From Dehalococcoidia bacterium (GTDB lineage: Bacteria; Chloroflexota; Dehalococcoidia; Lucifugimonadales; JADFKI01): a stretch of DNA of 64,000 bases. The notes under the pieces were generated by a model, which saw nothing but the letters and a program-made list of their open reading frames with translations, was not told where the DNA came from and did not search any database. The DNA is taken from the NCBI GenBank assembly GCA_965204605.1, contig OZ241999.1, positions 2,010,473 through 2,074,472 on the forward strand. The letters run 5' to 3'. Shown in pieces: positions 5,863 through 15,046 of this stretch. The position numbers and the translations under genes are program-made. Position 1 is the stretch's first letter. Every line of letters starts with the position of its first letter.

Positions 5863-6426
5863 ATGACCACGGCAACCACAACGAAGCCGCTGACCTACGA
5901 AGAATACCTGGACACGCCCGAAATCGAGGGGCGTTTCGACATCGTTGACGGAGAGATGATAATGGCAGCTGCGCCCACAAACGAACACCAAGAAACGATT
6001 GGCGAGTTCTACTTCATTCTGCGTCCATTTGTAATTGAGCGCAACCTGGGCAAAGTGCTGTTCGCGCCGTTGGACATCGTAATACGGCGCAACCCGCTGC
6101 GGACGCGCCAGCCGGACTTGTTGCTGCTAAGCAACGAAAGTTACGCGCGCATAGACCGCCACTTGCCGATAGAAGAGGCGCCTGAGTTGACGATAGAAAT
6201 ACTATCGCCGTCCAACACCCGCCGCCGAATCCAAGACGTGCTGGCGGACTACGCCGCAATCGGCGTGAAAGAGTGCTGGCTAGTGTCCCTAGACGCGCGC
6301 ACGATAGAAGTGCTGACGCTGGTGAACGGCGAATGGCAACGCTTGGCGCTGCTGGGCATAGGGGACAGGATGCGCTCCGAAGCGCTTGCGGGGTTGGATG
6401 TAGAGGTGGGACAGTTCTTCATATAA
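5863..6426 (+). CDS. Uma2-family (DUF820) endonuclease, copy 1
   Basis: YEEYLDTPE..RFDIVDGEMIM, QPDLLLLS and PELTIEILSPSN are the Uma2 PD-(D/E)xK signature blocks. AAGGGG RBS lies 8 nt upstream. Confidence 0.85.
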   Translation: MTTATTTKPLTYEEYLDTPEIEGRFDIVDGEMIMAAAPTNEHQETIGEFYFILRPFVIERNLGKVLFAPLDIVIRRNPLRTRQPDLLLLSNESYARIDRHLPIEEAPELTIEILSPSNTRRRIQDVLADYAAIGVKECWLVSLDARTIEVLTLVNGEWQRLALLGIGDRMRSEALAGLDVEVGQFFI

Positions 6427-6469
6427 TCGCCGCGCAATCCCGCGCTTGGCGCATGTAAGGGGTATGAAA

Positions 6470-7036
6470 ATGACAACCACGGCGACGCAGACGCAACTGC
6501 TGACCTACGAAGAATACCTGGACACGCCCGAAATCGAGGGGCGTTTCGACATCGTTGACGGAGAGATGATAATGGCGCCTTCCCCAATACCTGAGCATCA
6601 GATAACCATCAAGCGGTTCTTGTTCACCTTGAACCAGTTTATCGTTGAGCGCAACCTTGGCATACTGCTATTTGCGCCGCTTGACGTCGTGATACGGCGC
6701 AACCCGCTGCGGACGCGGCAGCCGGACTTGCTGCTGCTAAGCAACGAAACTTTCGCCCGCATATACCTCGACCGGCCGATAGAAGAAGCGCCGGAGTTGG
6801 CGATAGAAATACTATCGCCGTCCAACACGCGCCGCCGCGTCCAAGATACGCTTGCGGACTACGCCGCCATCGGCGTGAAAGAGTGCTGGCTGGTGTCCCT
6901 AGCCGCGCGCACGATAGAGGTTCTGACGCTGGTGAACGGGGAATGGCAACGCTTGGCGCTGCTAGGCATCGGGGACAGGATGCGCTCCGAAGCGCTTGCG
7001 GGACTGGATGTAGAGGTGGGGCAGTTCTTCGTATAA
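6470..7036 (+). CDS. Uma2-family (DUF820) endonuclease, copy 2 (tandem paralogue)
   Basis: Same signature blocks as copy 1. ATG at 6470 is placed behind AAGGGG as in copy 1. The ORF track's upstream TTG at 6446 is also possible. Confidence 0.85.
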   Translation: MTTTATQTQLLTYEEYLDTPEIEGRFDIVDGEMIMAPSPIPEHQITIKRFLFTLNQFIVERNLGILLFAPLDVVIRRNPLRTRQPDLLLLSNETFARIYLDRPIEEAPELAIEILSPSNTRRRVQDTLADYAAIGVKECWLVSLAARTIEVLTLVNGEWQRLALLGIGDRMRSEALAGLDVEVGQFFV

Positions 7037-8880: not shown

Positions 8881-9741
8881 CTATAGTAGCCGCGCCGCAA
8901 TCTCATCGGCGGGCTGCTTGGTGGCGCGGTGCTTGCCCACGTTCATGCCTTTTGATTTGCGGTCGCTGAATGTGGTCTCGACGGTTCGCAGGTCAAGCTC
9001 TTTTTGGACAGCCGCCATTTCCGATTGGGCGTTCAGCAGCCTGTCTTGCGCCATTTGGATGTAGGCTTCGCTGCGGTCTACGCCGATGTAGCGGTGTCCC
9101 AGCAGTTTGGCGGCGACTGCGGTTGTGCCGCTGCCAACATAGGGGTCAAGCACAACGCCGGGGTCGGCCGCGCCGAGTATGGCGATAATCACGCGCGCGG
9201 GCAGCCACAGCGGGAAGGGCGCAGGGTGCGGGTTCTTGCCCTCAGGGACGCCGCGCCATATGGATGTCAGTTTGGCGTCAACGGACTTCAGCTCTTTGCC
9301 AATCAGATGCGATCCGACGGGTTTGTACAGCCAATAGACGCGCTCGTCAACTTGCCAAAAGCGCCAGCCGCGAATGTTCGCCGCCAATACCCTGTCCCAG
9401 ATGATTTCCTGCTTGACCGTCCAATTCGTGCGGCGCAGCCAGTCCATCGGATGGAACATCTCGCCGCGCTCCCAGCGGATTTTGTGATTGTAGAAGAACG
9501 ATCCGCCCGGCGCGGTGATGCGGTAGATTTCGTTGAGCGCGTCCACCTGATTTTGCTGGTATTCGGCTTCGGGAACGGCGTCTTTGTAAGCGTCATAGAC
9601 GACGTTCTTGACCAGCCAACCCTTGTGCTTTTCCTGCTTGTTGTAGGGCGGCGAAGTTACGCCGACGTCAACGATTTCGGCAGGCAGTTTTCGGAGCTCC
9701 GTCAGCGTATCGCCGAGGATTAGGCGGTTGAAGTCGGTCAT
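8881..9741 (-). CDS. beta-class DNA amino-methyltransferase (N4-C or N6-A), SPPY type
   Basis: Motif IV VGVTSPPY sits N-terminal to motif I DPYVGSGTTAVAAKLLGHRYIGVD. Start overlaps the stop of the upstream gene (ATGA at 9741). Confidence 0.9.
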   Translation of the reverse strand: MTDFNRLILGDTLTELRKLPAEIVDVGVTSPPYNKQEKHKGWLVKNVVYDAYKDAVPEAEYQQNQVDALNEIYRITAPGGSFFYNHKIRWERGEMFHPMDWLRRTNWTVKQEIIWDRVLAANIRGWRFWQVDERVYWLYKPVGSHLIGKELKSVDAKLTSIWRGVPEGKNPHPAPFPLWLPARVIIAILGAADPGVVLDPYVGSGTTAVAAKLLGHRYIGVDRSEAYIQMAQDRLLNAQSEMAAVQKELDLRTVETTFSDRKSKGMNVGKHRATKQPADEIAARLL

Positions 9742-10415
9742 TATTCGGCAGAACTCCGCAGATGCTCATAGACGGGCGCGGTGATGTGCTTCTCTTCATA
9801 CAGATCGTAGAGCCGATCATCCGATACAAAGCGCATCGTTTTTAGAGCGGGCGCGTCTTTGAAATGCCGATAGGTGAACTCCGCGCTTCGCAAGTAAGCG
9901 CCGGCTACATCGCCGTTGGGGAATTTTCGCTCAAGCTGTAGGCGCAGCCTTGATGTGAATTGCGGTTCATTGAAGTTGAACTGAAAGATGTAAATCAGCT
10001 GTCCGTCAACGAATCCCGCGATGAGCATCACCGGATTTTCGCTCATATGCCGATTGAACTTCTTCCATGTATAGTCGGTGAAGTTGCCGCCGCCGTCCAA
10101 CTTGGGCTTGTTCTTGGCGGTGGAGGCGGTTCGCACATTCTTGGACTTGATTTCGCAATACTCGGCTGCGCCGATTGGCACTTCTTGCCTGAAGCCGTTG
10201 TAGCCGAGCTTTTCGGCGGCGGGCGTGAAACCCGCAAGCATCGCAACGACCATTTGGCGCAGGGTGGTCGCATTCAGGTCGTTGTAGTACAGCGCAACCA
10301 AGTCTAACAGCATCGCCACGAGGTTGTATTTGGATTTATTGACCAAAGCGGCGCTGATTTCGGATTCGGTCATTACGGCGTAGTTTCGGATTAGTTGGAG
10401 CAGGTCTTGGTTCAT
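9741..10415 (-). CDS. putative restriction endonuclease subunit A (unrecognised family)
   Basis: 224-aa ORF between two DNA methyltransferase genes, translationally coupled on both sides. E-x-K-like EYCEIKSK. The nuclease function is inferred from context only. Confidence 0.6.
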   Translation of the reverse strand: MNQDLLQLIRNYAVMTESEISAALVNKSKYNLVAMLLDLVALYYNDLNATTLRQMVVAMLAGFTPAAEKLGYNGFRQEVPIGAAEYCEIKSKNVRTASTAKNKPKLDGGGNFTDYTWKKFNRHMSENPVMLIAGFVDGQLIYIFQFNFNEPQFTSRLRLQLERKFPNGDVAGAYLRSAEFTYRHFKDAPALKTMRFVSDDRLYDLYEEKHITAPVYEHLRSSAE

Positions 10416-11089
10416 TATTCGGCAGAACTCCGTAGATGCCTATAGACGGGACCTGCGATATGTTTTTCTTCAAACAGATCGTCAAGCCGCCTATCTGATA
10501 CAAAGCGCATCGTTTTTAGAGCCGGCACGTCTTTGAAATGCCTAAAAGTGAAGTTCGCGCCGCGCAAGTAAATCCCGGATACGTCGCCGTTGGGAAATTT
10601 TCGCTGCAGTTGCTGCCGCAGCCTTGAGGTGAATTGCGGTTCATTGAAGTTGAACTGAAAGATGTAAATCAGTTGTCCGTCAACGAATCCTGCGACGAGC
10701 ATCACCGGATTTTCGCTTATGTGCCGATTGAACTTTTGCCATGAGTAGTCGGTGAAATTGCCAGCGCCATCCAGTTTGGGCTTGTTTGTGGCAGTAGATG
10801 CAGTTCGCACATTCTTGGGTTTGATTTCGCAATACTCTGTTGCGCCCGTTAGTGCCTCTTGCCTGAAACCATTGTATCCGAGCTTTTCAGTAAGAGGCGT
10901 GAAACCTGCAAGCACTGAAACAACCATTTCACGCAACGCGGACGAATTTAGGTCGTTGTAGTACAGCGTAAGCAAGTCTAACAACATCGCGGCGAGGTTG
11001 TCTTTGGATTTATTGACCAAAGTAGCGCTGATTTCAGAGTGCGGCGCTGTGGCGTAGTCTTCGATCACTTGGAGCAGGTCTTGGTTCAT
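10415..11089 (-). CDS. putative restriction endonuclease subunit B (paralogue of 9741..10415)
   Basis: 224 aa, the same length as its neighbour and identical to it at most positions by eye. EYCEIKPK is conserved. The stop overlaps the start of the next gene (ATGA at 10415). Confidence 0.6.
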   Translation of the reverse strand: MNQDLLQVIEDYATAPHSEISATLVNKSKDNLAAMLLDLLTLYYNDLNSSALREMVVSVLAGFTPLTEKLGYNGFRQEALTGATEYCEIKPKNVRTASTATNKPKLDGAGNFTDYSWQKFNRHISENPVMLVAGFVDGQLIYIFQFNFNEPQFTSRLRQQLQRKFPNGDVSGIYLRGANFTFRHFKDVPALKTMRFVSDRRLDDLFEEKHIAGPVYRHLRSSAE

Positions 11090-11183
11090 AAGGCTTGCCT
11101 TGCGTTAGGAAAATTAACCGACGCATTCCTGCGCCGCTTTGTACAGCATATTGTACATTAGGGTGTCAAGGGCGCTTGTAAGC

Positions 11184-12077
11184 CTATTGGTTATCGCTTT
11201 CGTCCAAATATGCAAGCCATTGGCGCGCGAATTGAACATATTCGGGGTTTAGTTCAATTCCGATGTACTCCAAACCCAGTTCTTGCGCCACTACGCATTC
11301 CGAGCCTGATCCGGCGAACGGGACTAGCACGCGGCCGCCCGTTCCGTTTATGCGGGACAAGATTAGGCGACGGGTGAGTTCCTGTGGTTTCTGCGTGGGA
11401 TGCTTCAGGATGTCGCATTGGCGGTGGTTCGCCAATTCTTGGGGCGGGAATATCTGGCCGCCGCAGGTGTAGCAGACAAACCAGCGTTCTACATGACCGG
11501 CGCCGCCCGCAAGAGCGGGGACTTTTATGACATCTCTGGGCAATGCGCCGCCTTCGTGGGCGTTGTACACCGTGCTTTTGCCGCTGCCGTTGTAGCGGCA
11601 GAATGTTTCTTTGCGCGGCTTGCCCGCCACCTTGAGATAGGCGGGCTTGTACGGCTCGCGTATCTGGTCAATTTCCAGCGTTGGGCGCTTTTCGTCTTGA
11701 CGCCACAAGCAGAGTATAGATTCGTGCGACCGCTGCCAAAACTTGGATGACGGCACCGTCTTGTTGGTGTAGTGCCACTGGAGCCAGCGCTGTCCGTCAA
11801 TGGCGTATCGCGCCGATATGCGCGCAAGGATTTCGGGCAAGCCGTAGATGTAGAGCAACCCGCCGGGGTTCAAGCGGTCGAGGCATTCGGCTATCCATTC
11901 CTGCGTCCACTCCACATAATCGTTCAGCGGCATTGCGTCGCGGTTGTTGCCGAAGTCTTTGCCTATGTTGTACGGCGGATCGGCAATCGCTACATCGAAA
12001 GTTTCGCTCGACGGCAACCCGCGAAGCGCCTCCAGCACATCGCCGTTGATAATGCGCGAGGATGTTGTGGCAGTCAT
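11184..12077 (-). CDS. beta-class DNA amino-methyltransferase, DPPY type
   Basis: Motif IV VAIADPPYNIG, then HPTQKPQEL, then motif I LVPFAGSGSECVVAQELGLEYIGIE. A Cys-containing insert (FVCYTCGG) is present. Confidence 0.9.
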   Translation of the reverse strand: MTATTSSRIINGDVLEALRGLPSSETFDVAIADPPYNIGKDFGNNRDAMPLNDYVEWTQEWIAECLDRLNPGGLLYIYGLPEILARISARYAIDGQRWLQWHYTNKTVPSSKFWQRSHESILCLWRQDEKRPTLEIDQIREPYKPAYLKVAGKPRKETFCRYNGSGKSTVYNAHEGGALPRDVIKVPALAGGAGHVERWFVCYTCGGQIFPPQELANHRQCDILKHPTQKPQELTRRLILSRINGTGGRVLVPFAGSGSECVVAQELGLEYIGIELNPEYVQFARQWLAYLDESDNQ

Positions 12078-12128: not shown

Positions 12129-12158
12129 ATTCTATCGGCAGGAGTTGGTTATTGTCAA
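12129..12158 (-). promoter_or_regulatory. sigma70-like promoter for the M-R-R-M operon
   Basis: On the minus strand, TTGACA (12158-12153), an 18-nt spacer, then TAGAAT (12134-12129). Lies about 50 nt upstream of the start at 12077. Confidence 0.45.
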
Positions 12159-12200: not shown

Positions 12201-12872
12201 TTATCTGGGGATCACCACATGGATTACTCTTTGTTCGGATTGTAGGATAGTGTCATCGAACAATCCTATATCATGAACGGGCAACTTATCGGCATATTTC
12301 CTGAACGCAGTATGATAGAAATTCCTGAGTATGAAATCAACAAACTGAGATGGAGTCAACGGCGCTGTGACTGGAATTCTACAATTCTTGTATTGCCCGA
12401 GCGTCATATGGGACTTAGGATGCTCCAATTCTCGATGAATGCGATCATCAGAATCATAATCGAAGCGTATCGGAAATGAAACGACGTTCTTCGCCACTAT
12501 GTCGGCATAAACTTCGTCATTGAGGTAGGGATCCGGATCGTTCTGAAATGTCTCAAGAAAGGGTGAGGGGAAGAATGCTAATCTATGAAGTCGCAAGGTA
12601 TTACCAGCGAATTGATACATCATCTGAAGCATTGCTCCGTCGGGCAACTTTGCGGTATACGCTCGTGCATTCAGAATATGCCGATAAATCTCTTCGTAAG
12701 TACGATCTTTTAGCGCAAGCGAAACTTCGTTAGCATTCTGAAATGTGACCTCGACCAAACCTCCACTTGCTGATCGTTGAAATGCGAAACCCTGATCTTC
12801 TGCAAGGCCTGCTTCTATCAAAAAACCAACAAGCCCGTTGATCTGATCTTTAATTTGGTTAGGAGTGGGCAT
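12201..12872 (-). CDS. DUF2290-like protein, partner of the upstream helicase
   Basis: 223-aa ORF 5 nt downstream of the helicase gene in an AT-rich segment. The DUF2290 assignment comes from recollection of size and context, not from a search. Confidence 0.55.
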   Translation of the reverse strand: MPTPNQIKDQINGLVGFLIEAGLAEDQGFAFQRSASGGLVEVTFQNANEVSLALKDRTYEEIYRHILNARAYTAKLPDGAMLQMMYQFAGNTLRLHRLAFFPSPFLETFQNDPDPYLNDEVYADIVAKNVVSFPIRFDYDSDDRIHRELEHPKSHMTLGQYKNCRIPVTAPLTPSQFVDFILRNFYHTAFRKYADKLPVHDIGLFDDTILQSEQRVIHVVIPR

Positions 12873-12877
12873 ATTAC

Positions 12878-15046
12878 TTATCCATTGCCTATAAAGGCTC
12901 TGAGCTTGTCAACCGTGTCCGCGTTCAGGTCTTCGATATGCAGATTGCCGGATTCGATATTAACAATAATATCGTCCAAACTCTTCTGGGCAGTTTCCAA
13001 TTGTTCATGCCCTGATGGGCTCATATCGCGATGAACGACGCGCAACTGCTCGCGTTCCTCTTCGGTTGGATAGACAAACTTCAATTCAAAGCCCCGTGTT
13101 TTCAACTCCTCATATTCTTTCATGAGTTTCTCCATACCATCACCTATGCCTAGCACACGGACCCAAGCCTTGCTTCTGGTGATAGCAGTGAATAGTTGGT
13201 TACGCTTGGTCGCCAAATTAAACTGGGATGGCTGAGACGAATGGCAGTCCTGGGCGTTGATGATGTACACCATCCCGGCTTCGTTGCCTTTTGCGCGAAA
13301 AATGCCAGTGAAGGTTACTGAATCTTCATTGAAGAAGACATCAGGATCAGTGTCCACGCCGGCAAGATGTGAATTGATATTCATTTCGAACAAAAGGCGG
13401 CGTGTTAGTCCAACCTTTGCGCGAGTCGTGCTGGGATCGGGATTTATCACAATAATGTCGTTGTGCTGAAGCTCGCTTTTCGACAAGTCTTCTTTGATCG
13501 CTTCTGCTAACCATCGTGCCTGTTCCTTGTCGCTATCAAAGGGAACGAACTTAACCAAGTCATCAGGATCTGAATGTTCTTCCAGAAACTCTGGGCTAGT
13601 TTCCTCGGTTCTGCGGAGTGTTACGGAAGAGCGTTCTTTTAACTCTCCCTCTTTCCGTTCATAGCCGATTTCTTCCCAAAGTTGCGGGTAATCAAACATT
13701 TGTACGAGCCCGTTAGGTTCACCCGCTGATGGTTCTCGATATATTCCGAAGCCAAGCGCGTGGGCCGTTACAAGCACAGGGCGCGAGTTGCGATAGCATT
13801 TCTCCAAGATAATATCGCGTCTTGGCGTAGCGCTATTACTCGGCAAATTAAACGTTACCTTGGGATCTCCGTTTTCTTTAGTTCCGAAAATCTGCTCCGG
13901 GGAAGGCAAAGACTTTCCCGTGAGACTCTGTAATTCGTCATACGCATAGACCAACCTTTTAGGAGTTTTCAGGAACTCGTAACAGAGTCGGAGAAACTCA
14001 GATGGAAGATCTTGCGCCTCATCTACAAGGATTGCGTCGTAGATCGGCTTGTTTTCAGAGATCAGTTCAATGGCGCGCGCGCAAACTCTCTCAAATTCTC
14101 TGCCTGGGAAAGTTCTCCTAGCGGACCGAAAATCTAGGTATTCGATATTATGCGCGCGGCAAAATTCGTGATAGATTCCATCGCGCTCACTTTGTCCCGG
14201 AGCTCCCCATGCGTTCAAGATACGCAAGTTTTCCCAGTCCGGCTCTGCACTTGTTTGTTCAAGAGCAAAGTTAGTGATCAGTCGACGAAAATACCCCTTC
14301 AATGAGCGAGTGCTGAAGGTTACGGCTATACGCCAGTCAGGGTGCTGAGCATGGAGGTAAGCGGCTTTTAGGGCAAGCACGATGGTCTTGCCAGATCCGG
14401 CTAATCCTCTAATGCGTTGAACGCCGTCGACCGTCTCAATAACGGCTTTGCTTTGCAGGTTGTCTAGAGTAGAGATTGAATCCTCCAGACACTTTAGTTT
14501 AGCACCGCGAGAGTCGTCTTTCTTTATCGTACGTCTAGTTCTGCTCTGGCGGAGGGCGGATATACTCTCGATTACCGACAACGCAACTTCATAGGTATAG
14601 GTGCGTTGCTCGCCCGCATTCCATTTGAAATGCCTTATCTCATCTATGAGGGTATCGCCGTTTGCAATTGGATAGTCGTCAATTTCGCAATCAGCCAGAT
14701 TGCGCACGGCTGGCGCAAATGAAATCGTGTGAATCCGAATGAGCAAATCTCTGCGTCGCACTAAACCTGGATTAAGCCGCAACTTCGCCTCAATCTTGTT
14801 AGCGGAATCGTCCTGACGGACGTCGTAACAGTTTGTATCGGTTCCTTCTATTAGGTCGAATATCACGATTCCTTTATCAGGAGACACCAAGAGAGCGTCG
14901 ATCATATGAGGACCTTCGGAAGTACCGATGATTGGGTATCCAATGAATAGTTGACCAGATATATCTATCTGATCTGAAAAGATATTGTACAACTCTGAAC
15001 TAGAAACATGCTTTTGGTTAGTGCCTCGGACAATTTGAACACCCAT
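12878..15046 (-). CDS. superfamily 1 (UvrD-like) DNA helicase with an N-terminal NERD/nuclease-like region
   Basis: Walker A IRGLAGSGKTIVLALKAAY, Walker B ILVDEAQDL, C-terminal FTAITRSKAWVRVLG. AGAGGAGG RBS upstream. Confidence 0.85.
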   Translation of the reverse strand: MGVQIVRGTNQKHVSSSELYNIFSDQIDISGQLFIGYPIIGTSEGPHMIDALLVSPDKGIVIFDLIEGTDTNCYDVRQDDSANKIEAKLRLNPGLVRRRDLLIRIHTISFAPAVRNLADCEIDDYPIANGDTLIDEIRHFKWNAGEQRTYTYEVALSVIESISALRQSRTRRTIKKDDSRGAKLKCLEDSISTLDNLQSKAVIETVDGVQRIRGLAGSGKTIVLALKAAYLHAQHPDWRIAVTFSTRSLKGYFRRLITNFALEQTSAEPDWENLRILNAWGAPGQSERDGIYHEFCRAHNIEYLDFRSARRTFPGREFERVCARAIELISENKPIYDAILVDEAQDLPSEFLRLCYEFLKTPKRLVYAYDELQSLTGKSLPSPEQIFGTKENGDPKVTFNLPSNSATPRRDIILEKCYRNSRPVLVTAHALGFGIYREPSAGEPNGLVQMFDYPQLWEEIGYERKEGELKERSSVTLRRTEETSPEFLEEHSDPDDLVKFVPFDSDKEQARWLAEAIKEDLSKSELQHNDIIVINPDPSTTRAKVGLTRRLLFEMNINSHLAGVDTDPDVFFNEDSVTFTGIFRAKGNEAGMVYIINAQDCHSSQPSQFNLATKRNQLFTAITRSKAWVRVLGIGDGMEKLMKEYEELKTRGFELKFVYPTEEEREQLRVVHRDMSPSGHEQLETAQKSLDDIIVNIESGNLHIEDLNADTVDKLRAFIGNG

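Follow-up and report, generated by a model that had tools for sequence, protein, structure and literature searches.

A tandem pair of putative PvuII-like nuclease genes beside a probable orphan methylase gene in a Dehalococcoidia genome

Introduction

Clusters in which two related nuclease genes lie in tandem and are accompanied by two methylase genes are known from the BbvCI and Bpu10I restriction-modification (R-M) systems. There, both methylases are C5 enzymes that serve a single asymmetric site, and the nuclease subunits are mutually dependent and far more diverged from each other than those described here. A locus of similar outward appearance is found in a 64,000-nucleotide stretch of contig OZ241999.1 from a Dehalococcoidia bacterium (“the window”), where two paralogous genes, XA and XB (collectively X), are flanked by two methylase genes, M1 and M2. 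In this article we compare the locus with its closest described counterparts and argue that it probably comprises two adjacent, independent type II R-M modules: M1-R1, which lost its nuclease R1, and XA-XB-M2, which carries a diverged tandem nuclease pair. This reading is built on gene order, homology, synteny, fold, selection and amino acid substitutions, from which we infer cleavage, specificity, the methylated base, dimerization and the role of XB.

The PvuII R-M system is the closest structural counterpart of the X module. Both combine a small nuclease with a beta-class amino-methylase carrying an SPP(Y/F) motif, and in R.PvuII as well as in X, N-terminal helices precede the catalytic sheet. 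It is through these helices that PvuII dimerizes. The window system differs in lacking a controller (C) protein and in the duplication of its nuclease gene. Moreover, the X proteins are approximately 65 amino acids (aa) longer, owing to a four-helix N-terminal region, show no detectable sequence homology to PvuII and are not members of the PvuII Pfam family.

On the methylase side, the closest biochemically proven relative is Adineta vaga (bdelloid rotifer) N4CMT, an N4-cytosine methylase of bacterial origin, which shares the SPPY and HPAPFP motifs with M2. Unlike M2, N4CMT is a eukaryotic protein fused to a chromodomain, has a relaxed specificity and lacks a nuclease partner. Its crystal structure has been reported (8S9M; PMC10406627). 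According to Rodriguez et al., the closest bacterial relatives of N4CMT are TCGA and CCSGG methylases, and five putative REBASE enzymes are labelled “N4N6_TCGA” in Supplementary Data 1 of that study (PMC8885841).

Organization of the locus

The sequence-only reading had described four genes on the minus strand, and the list of open reading frames (ORFs), which together with the sequence gives the gene coordinates below, places them exactly where it did:

11184-12077, minus strand: M1, 297 aa, IADPPYN motif
11090-11183, minus strand: 94-nt gap between M1 and XA, conserved leader of the first X gene and site of the putative R1 deletion
10415-11089, minus strand: XA, 224 aa
9741-10415, minus strand: XB, 224 aa, tandem paralogue of XA
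8881-9741, minus strand: M2, 286 aa, TSPPYN motif

M1 and M2 both match the Pfam family PF01555 (N6_N4_Mtase), with E values of 2e-33 and 4e-27, respectively, yet share only 24% identity. The earlier description called the X copies near-identical, which was overstated: identity amounts to 80% at the protein and 83% at the DNA level, with a nonsynonymous divergence (dN) of 0.115, a synonymous divergence (dS) of 0.54 and a ratio of the two (omega) of 0.21. The XA/XB/M2 junctions read GAA-TAA-TG, i.e., the TAA stop has one base in common with the next ATG (TAATG), and the three genes are evidently translationally coupled. Of the ATGA overlaps proposed before, the string and the coupling are real; the stop codon, however, is TAA and not TGA.

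Predicted fold and conservation of the X family

The predicted fold of the X proteins is that of a restriction endonuclease. An AlphaFold2 model of XA, based on a 49-sequence alignment, reached a mean per-residue confidence (pLDDT) of 84.8, and a Foldseek search of the Protein Data Bank (PDB) returned PvuII, ThaI and DpnI at the top. The XB model, which made use of a broader alignment of 68 sequences, reached a pLDDT of 91.1 and a predicted template modelling score (pTM) of 0.85. Its best match was PvuII (E 4.6e-4, Foldseek probability 1.00, TM score 0.59 on PvuII length), followed by the SPARDA nuclease domain, DpnI, ThaI, RecU, Hjc, SwaI and BglI. PvuII ranked first with both models, and the fold search suggested by the sequence-only reading led almost entirely to PD-(D/E)xK nucleases.

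Beyond residue 50, the helices and strands of X presumably follow one another as in PvuII, as compared by secondary structure rather than by structural alignment. Within this order, we take EYCEIKxKN of X to resemble EYELKSIN around E68/K70 of PvuII, a comparison made from the known PvuII sequence and predicted secondary structure and not from a residue-level alignment. The X position that corresponds to PvuII D58 by secondary-structure order is N73, which is asparagine in 233 and aspartate in 8 of 241 family members. A helix ahead of the catalytic sheet supplies an acidic residue of the metal site in many PD-(D/E)xK enzymes, e.g., E45 of EcoRV. E54 of X occupies such a helix, immediately ahead of its sheet, and is presumably equivalent to a residue of this kind. 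E54 and D46 are named here as candidates for the other acidic metal ligands, and, judging by conservation alone, D46, S49, E54, E88, K90 and P91 may cluster in space.

K69, E88 and N93 are invariant across the 241 members, and N45, D46, N48, R53, K90 (240 members), D114 and R176 occur in at least 239. XA and XB both keep all strictly invariant residues as well as D46, K90, D114 and R176. The EYCEIK sequence, singled out earlier as a possible E-x-K, is present in both copies and includes the invariant E88 and K90.

The X family comprises proteins of approximately 220 aa and is widespread: the XA query retrieved 222 clusters, and a query with the Helicobacter cinaedi member 932. In every source name shown (NCBI, UniRef, JGI) the matches are called “hypothetical protein”. 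For a survey of gene neighbourhoods, one genome per species was taken, yielding 80 loci (individual loci are cited by L numbers), in which ORFs were called and searched with the four window proteins. The conserved unit is a single X gene, the stop of which overlaps or abuts an M2-type methylase gene (approximately 75 of the 80 loci). X-M2 units are found in Poribacteria, Dehalococcoidia, Aquificae, Elusimicrobia, Bacteroidota and several proteobacterial metagenome-assembled genomes, as well as in Helicobacter (cinaedi, labetoulli) and Campylobacter gastrosuis. Most of these loci contain no M1, and X is single-copy in nearly all other genomes (approximately 75 of the 80 loci). A search for plasmids carrying X found none.

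X and M2 are not decayed equally often. In seven loci (L033, L062, L064, L068, L069, L073, L076) X is split or truncated next to an intact M2, and in one locus only (L063) M2 is decayed next to an intact X, a pattern that is usual for a toxic restriction gene. The PvuII-like PD-(D/E)xK fold, the invariant E-x-K, the coupling to a methylase and the selective decay of X all agree with the earlier guess that these proteins are nucleases. On these grounds, they are very probably the nucleases of an R-M system, which provides a predicted fold and a probable function for a family of more than 900 clusters that goes unrecognised by Pfam, NCBIfam and PADLOC.

A phage search returned distant X homologues only. 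Among T4-like cyanophages, 48 records contain a 198-aa hypothetical protein that is 28-29% identical to X residues 38-221, for example at positions 2887-3483 of L094 (Synechococcus phage ACG-2014d, KJ019124.1). The phage protein keeps the motifs NDxNSSTLRE, ExKPKN and GxFxDY. Its gene directly follows a helicase gene, and no methylase is annotated alongside.

M2 and its predicted target site

M2 carries the SPPY motif in its N-terminal and an FxGxG-type motif (YVGSGTT) in its C-terminal part, which is the circularly permuted order of beta-class enzymes. It aligns with the catalytic domain of the N4CMT structure at 37% identity (E 1.9e-40) and is 54-58% identical, over the full length including the target recognition domain, to all five REBASE putative TCGA-labelled methylases, i.e., M.HciORF741P, M.Hwi430ORFCP, M.Tru12173ORF8030P, M.TbaTF1ORF1101P and M.PmaEXORF210P. 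Identity to M.NciI (CCSGG) amounts to 33%, and M.PvuII is a distant relative (E 3.5e-5). By these similarities M2 is a beta-class SPPY methylase that probably modifies N4 of cytosine, and by its place next to X it is to be regarded as the cognate methylase of X. The X family is thereby linked to the methylase lineage behind the rotifer enzyme.

Two of the REBASE entries can be traced to X loci. Beside X, H. cinaedi (L049) encodes M.HciORF741P itself, at 100% identity, and Thermocrinis (L056) encodes a methylase with 97% identity to M.Tru12173ORF8030P. Hence, the X-M2 module is already present in REBASE on its methylase side, with a palindromic site predicted. Since the X homologue lies directly upstream of the methylase gene in both cases, these are systems of the same kind as XA-XB-M2. 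They differ from the window locus in having a single X gene and no M1 neighbour, and all of them are putative, with a predicted base (“N4N6”) and a predicted site.

Among palindromic tetramers, TCGA ranks third in avoidance in the pooled loci of Poribacteria, of Helicobacter/Campylobacter and of Aquificae, a suggestive result for these hosts. The Markov-corrected ratios of observed to expected TCGA counts (O/E) are as follows:

Helicobacter/Campylobacter loci: 0.10
Aquificae loci: 0.38
Poribacteria loci: 0.52
Dehalococcoidia loci: 0.81
Window: 0.94

M1 and its separate partner R1

M1 contains the motifs DPPY and HPTQKP, and its best PDB match is M.BceJIV. Over the full length it is 34-38% identical to M.AccIII, M.CagVI and M.NspKEnV, which are N6-methyladenine (m6A) enzymes recognizing TCCGGA. 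M1 probably belongs to the N6-adenine beta-class enzymes and forms m6A; its recognition site is not given by these relatives.

The genes that follow M1 orthologues (58-97% identity) reveal a partner other than X. In L005, L087, L001, L006, L007, L026 and L029 an overlapping ORF of 182-205 aa, termed R1, comes next. In L005 and L087 the 182-aa R1 is intact and lies ahead of X, its ORF overlapping the M1 end. L085 has a frameshift in R1, and L086 retains no more than 51 R1 codons. Poribacterial R1 proteins comprise 205 aa and are 53-57% identical. In three unrelated genomes (L090, L091, L093) R1 is preceded by an overlapping M1 orthologue with 58-71% full-length identity, and X-M2 is not found nearby. 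R1 ORFs are located as follows:

L005, 5154-5702
L087, 589-1137
L001, 8605-9222
L090, L091 and L093, 4001-4591

The R1 family forms 261 clusters, is always overlapped by an M1-type methylase gene and shares the motif HDDxAD...LQIKSG (HDDKAD...LQIKSG in R1). Searches of Pfam gave no match and searches of the PDB no meaningful one. R1 is a putative small restriction nuclease, and would represent a second unannotated nuclease family besides X.

The window itself contains no trace of R1 detectable by tblastn, and a comparison with L005 locates the loss. The two DNAs match at approximately 95% identity across M2 and XB and, on the far side of the difference, again across M1. Between these flanks the window contains the 94-nt leader and XA, and L005 contains R1 and a spacer. 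From synteny, M1 is to be read as the methylase of a separate M1-R1 system that was orphaned in the window by deletion of R1. Conversely, L084 possesses an X-X-M2 cassette without M1. Approximately 1.6 kb from this cassette, at L084 1460-3354, genes for an EcoRI-family nuclease (PF02963) and a D12-class methylase form another R-M system on the same island.

The two modules are neighbours in more than one arrangement. The order is X-M2-M1-R1 in the Poribacteria L001, L006, L026 and L029, and M1-R1-X-M2 in the poribacterial L007. The former order and the latter, which is also that of the Dehalococcoidia L005 and L087, are circular permutations of the same four genes. The distribution suggests that X-M2 and M1-R1 move together among sponge-associated bacteria.

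A further feature of M1 is an insertion of approximately 27 aa with cysteines (VCYTCGG...HRQC) just before HPTQKP, encoded at 11400-11520 of the window (M1 residues ~190-225). The insertion is common to M1 orthologues, absent from M.CagVI, M.NspKEnV and M.AccIII, and may form a small zinc-binding element.

Origin and divergence of XA and XB

The tandem X pair is not confined to the window but recurs in L002, L004, L084 and L086, of which L004 is a chromosome record. An assembly artefact is ruled out by this recurrence in independent assemblies with different sequences. A recent duplication in situ was likewise discarded, on account of the dS of 0.54 and the several members present in each of the XA and XB clades.

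In a phylogenetic tree XA and XB form two sister clades with different distributions. Genes of the XA type are confined to the first position of tandem pairs (window, L002, L004, L086). XB-type genes take the second position, fill both (L084, where the two are 91% identical to each other) or form the sole X gene (L005, L085, L087). The loci with an intact R1 (L005, L087) lack XA; where XA has M1 upstream, R1 is absent (window) or reduced to the 51-codon remnant (L086), although these loci are few and related.

Both paralogues are under purifying selection. Within the clades omega ranges from 0.10 to 0.30 overall, with values of 0.11-0.17 for XA and 0.10-0.30 for XB against their respective orthologues; accordingly, both genes have been kept functional for a long time. 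Their substitutions are distributed unequally. XA keeps the family consensus throughout (T41, S49, E54, E88, K90, P91), whereas XB-type proteins carry T41A, S49A, E54Q and P91S. The consensus residues at these positions are found in 234 (T41), 237 (S49), 234 (E54) and 234 (P91) of the 241 members, and S49, E54 and P91 are kept even in the 29%-identical cyanophage homologue. P91S adjoins the E-x-K, and E54Q arose a second time, independently, in P0007. XA is likely the standard, working nuclease. XB, in our reading, would be a derived paralogue with the same DNA specificity and an altered active site. As XB is under purifying selection, it does something, which is probably not exactly the role of XA.

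Leader and transcription units

Features of the 94-nt leader between M1 and XA are a TTGAC(A/G) box, a TGTACA repeat and, at 11119-11136, a hairpin with a T-run behind it. The leader can be aligned to the sequence upstream of the first X gene in L002, L084, L085, L086, L087 and L005, and is kept whether this gene is of the XA or the XB type. A promoter candidate for M1 is found in addition:

12129-12158, minus strand: candidate promoter of sigma-70 type upstream of M1, TTGACA-18-TAGAAT, agreeing with the consensus at 11 of 12 positions, by consensus match only

Given that M1 has a promoter candidate of its own and that the leader combines a promoter-like box with a terminator-like hairpin, the four genes are probably organized in two transcription units.

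Favoured model and alternatives

In the model that we favour, the first module is XA-XB-M2. X would be a PvuII-like PD-(D/E)xK endonuclease that, by analogy with PvuII, probably works in dimeric form at a short palindromic site, and M2 would protect the host copies of the target site. The second module would once have consisted of M1, an m6A methylase, and R1, a small putative nuclease, the deletion of which would leave M1 as the surviving orphan. By analogy, the locus may be classed as a type IIP system of the PvuII kind, composed of a small dimeric PD-(D/E)xK nuclease and an SPPY N4-cytosine methylase, with an orphan m6A methylase beside it.

Several results weigh against this model. XA and XB have no matches in Pfam (E <= 0.1), nor in NCBIfam, PADLOC or, by phmmer and by profile, the PDB; PvuII is absent from the results of both the sequence and the profile searches. 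A comparison of the X family profile with the PvuII sequence by hhalign gave a probability of 0.2%, the PvuII sequence used having been checked only at D34, D58, E68, K70 and Y94. The canonical aspartate of the PD motif was not located among the 241 X members, and the fold agreement is moderate, with TM scores of 0.44-0.59. The label TCGA was predicted by REBASE for putative genes and reaches us second-hand, through the supplement of a paper; a literature search for a characterised beta-class methylase forming N4-methylcytosine in TCGA found none that accounts for it. TCGA is not avoided in the window or the Dehalococcoidia loci, and the specificity of M2 therefore stays a prediction. Finally, M1-R1 and X-M2 lie side by side in two phyla, and in two different gene orders, so that some functional link between them is conceivable.

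The alternative that survives best concerns the role of the second X copy. XA and XB might be redundant isoschizomers, i.e., both active as homodimers of the same specificity, with the tandem copy being neutral or related to dosage. The retention of K69, E88, N93, D46, K90, D114 and R176 in both proteins fits this possibility, and the segments that correspond to the PvuII recognition strand by secondary-structure order (GNFTDY) are almost identical; the independent E54Q in P0007 implies that this change may be tolerated. On the other hand, a dS of 0.54 with an omega of 0.2 on both copies indicates long retention, which is unexpected for a redundant toxic gene, and four coordinated changes at near-universal positions argue for an altered function of XB. 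We regard redundancy as possible, but as the less probable account.

A more specific role for XB is doubtful. XA and XB could be obligate or preferred heterodimers, and if E54Q impairs XB, cutting of one strand or slow cutting would amount to a natural nicking or attenuated form of a palindrome-specific enzyme. At least four diverged versions of the cassette retain both copies undamaged and under purifying selection, the differences between them concentrate in the N-terminal helices that serve as the dimer interface in PvuII, and XB is altered at residues kept in 97-98% of the family and in the phage homologue. Yet in L005, L085 and L087 an XB-type gene is the sole X partner of M2 and is still under purifying selection; hence, XB does not need XA. 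Furthermore, L084 has two XB-type copies, X is single-copy in nearly all other genomes, and the X module includes only one methylase. Altogether, we consider heterodimers unlikely. Slightly less credit still is given to the narrower version that a catalytically altered XB pairs with XA and that the mixed dimer nicks or slowly cuts a palindrome. If this were true, the mixed dimer would be a natural example of tuning or strand-biasing of a PvuII-like enzyme and could serve as a scaffold for nicking enzymes. In any case, the retained and diverged XA/XB pair is a modestly unusual feature and a small, testable case of restriction-enzyme gene duplication.

It is highly improbable that X is not a restriction nuclease at all but another DNA-binding or repair protein that travels with a methylase. 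The missing family assignment, the canonical aspartate that was not located and the distant cyanophage homologues beside a helicase without a methylase would be compatible with such a protein. However, the fold matches almost exclusively restriction endonucleases and resolvases, E-x-K is invariant, and X overlaps a methylase gene in approximately 75 loci and decays while M2 stays intact.

Least probable, and already at odds with synteny, is a single four-gene type IIT system, in which the methylases M1 and M2 would modify one strand each of an asymmetric site, with one strand cut by XA and the other by XB: despite the M-R-R-M order on one strand and the two different methylases, M1 is syntenic with its own R1 in many genomes, M1-R1 pairs occur without X-M2, X-X-M2 (L084) and X-M2 (most loci) occur without M1, and a conserved leader with a promoter-like box and a terminator-like hairpin separates M1 from XA. 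The comparison with BbvCI and Bpu10I drawn in the sequence-only reading fails at its most testable point, because M1 and M2 are not of one system, M1 pairing with R1 rather than with X. It is further weakened by the usual single-copy state of X and by the loci that have XB but no XA. As to the site, the one lead is the predicted label of the M2 relatives, TCGA, which is a palindrome.

Returning to the two-module model, an apparent M-R-R-M operon can result from two adjoining R-M modules, one of which is minus its nuclease. This calls for caution when heterodimeric enzymes are predicted from gene architecture.

Genomic setting

The locus lies in a stretch of the window (9-15 kb) where the GC content drops from approximately 0.62 in the flanks to 0.46-0.57. 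Directly upstream of M1, two genes form a candidate two-gene defence system, where the GC content is the lowest of the window (0.46-0.48):

12201-12872, minus strand: DUF2290 protein, PADLOC model PDLC02999 (E 4e-92)
12878-15046, minus strand: 722-aa UvrD-like helicase, PADLOC model PDLC03002 (1033 bits)

With these PADLOC matches, the low-GC stretch resembles a defence island. A tandem pair of Uma2-family paralogues lies just downstream of the cassette; both match PF05685, “putative restriction endonuclease” (E ~1e-29 each):

5863-6426, plus strand: Uma2-family gene
6446-7036, plus strand: Uma2-family gene

L005 has several further Uma2 copies in a row, as seen from repeated blastn matches. 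Lastly, some palindromes are strongly avoided across the 64-kb window by second-order Markov O/E, namely GGCC (0.24), CATG (0.42), ACGT (0.50) and GATC (0.55), a hint that other restriction systems act on this genome.

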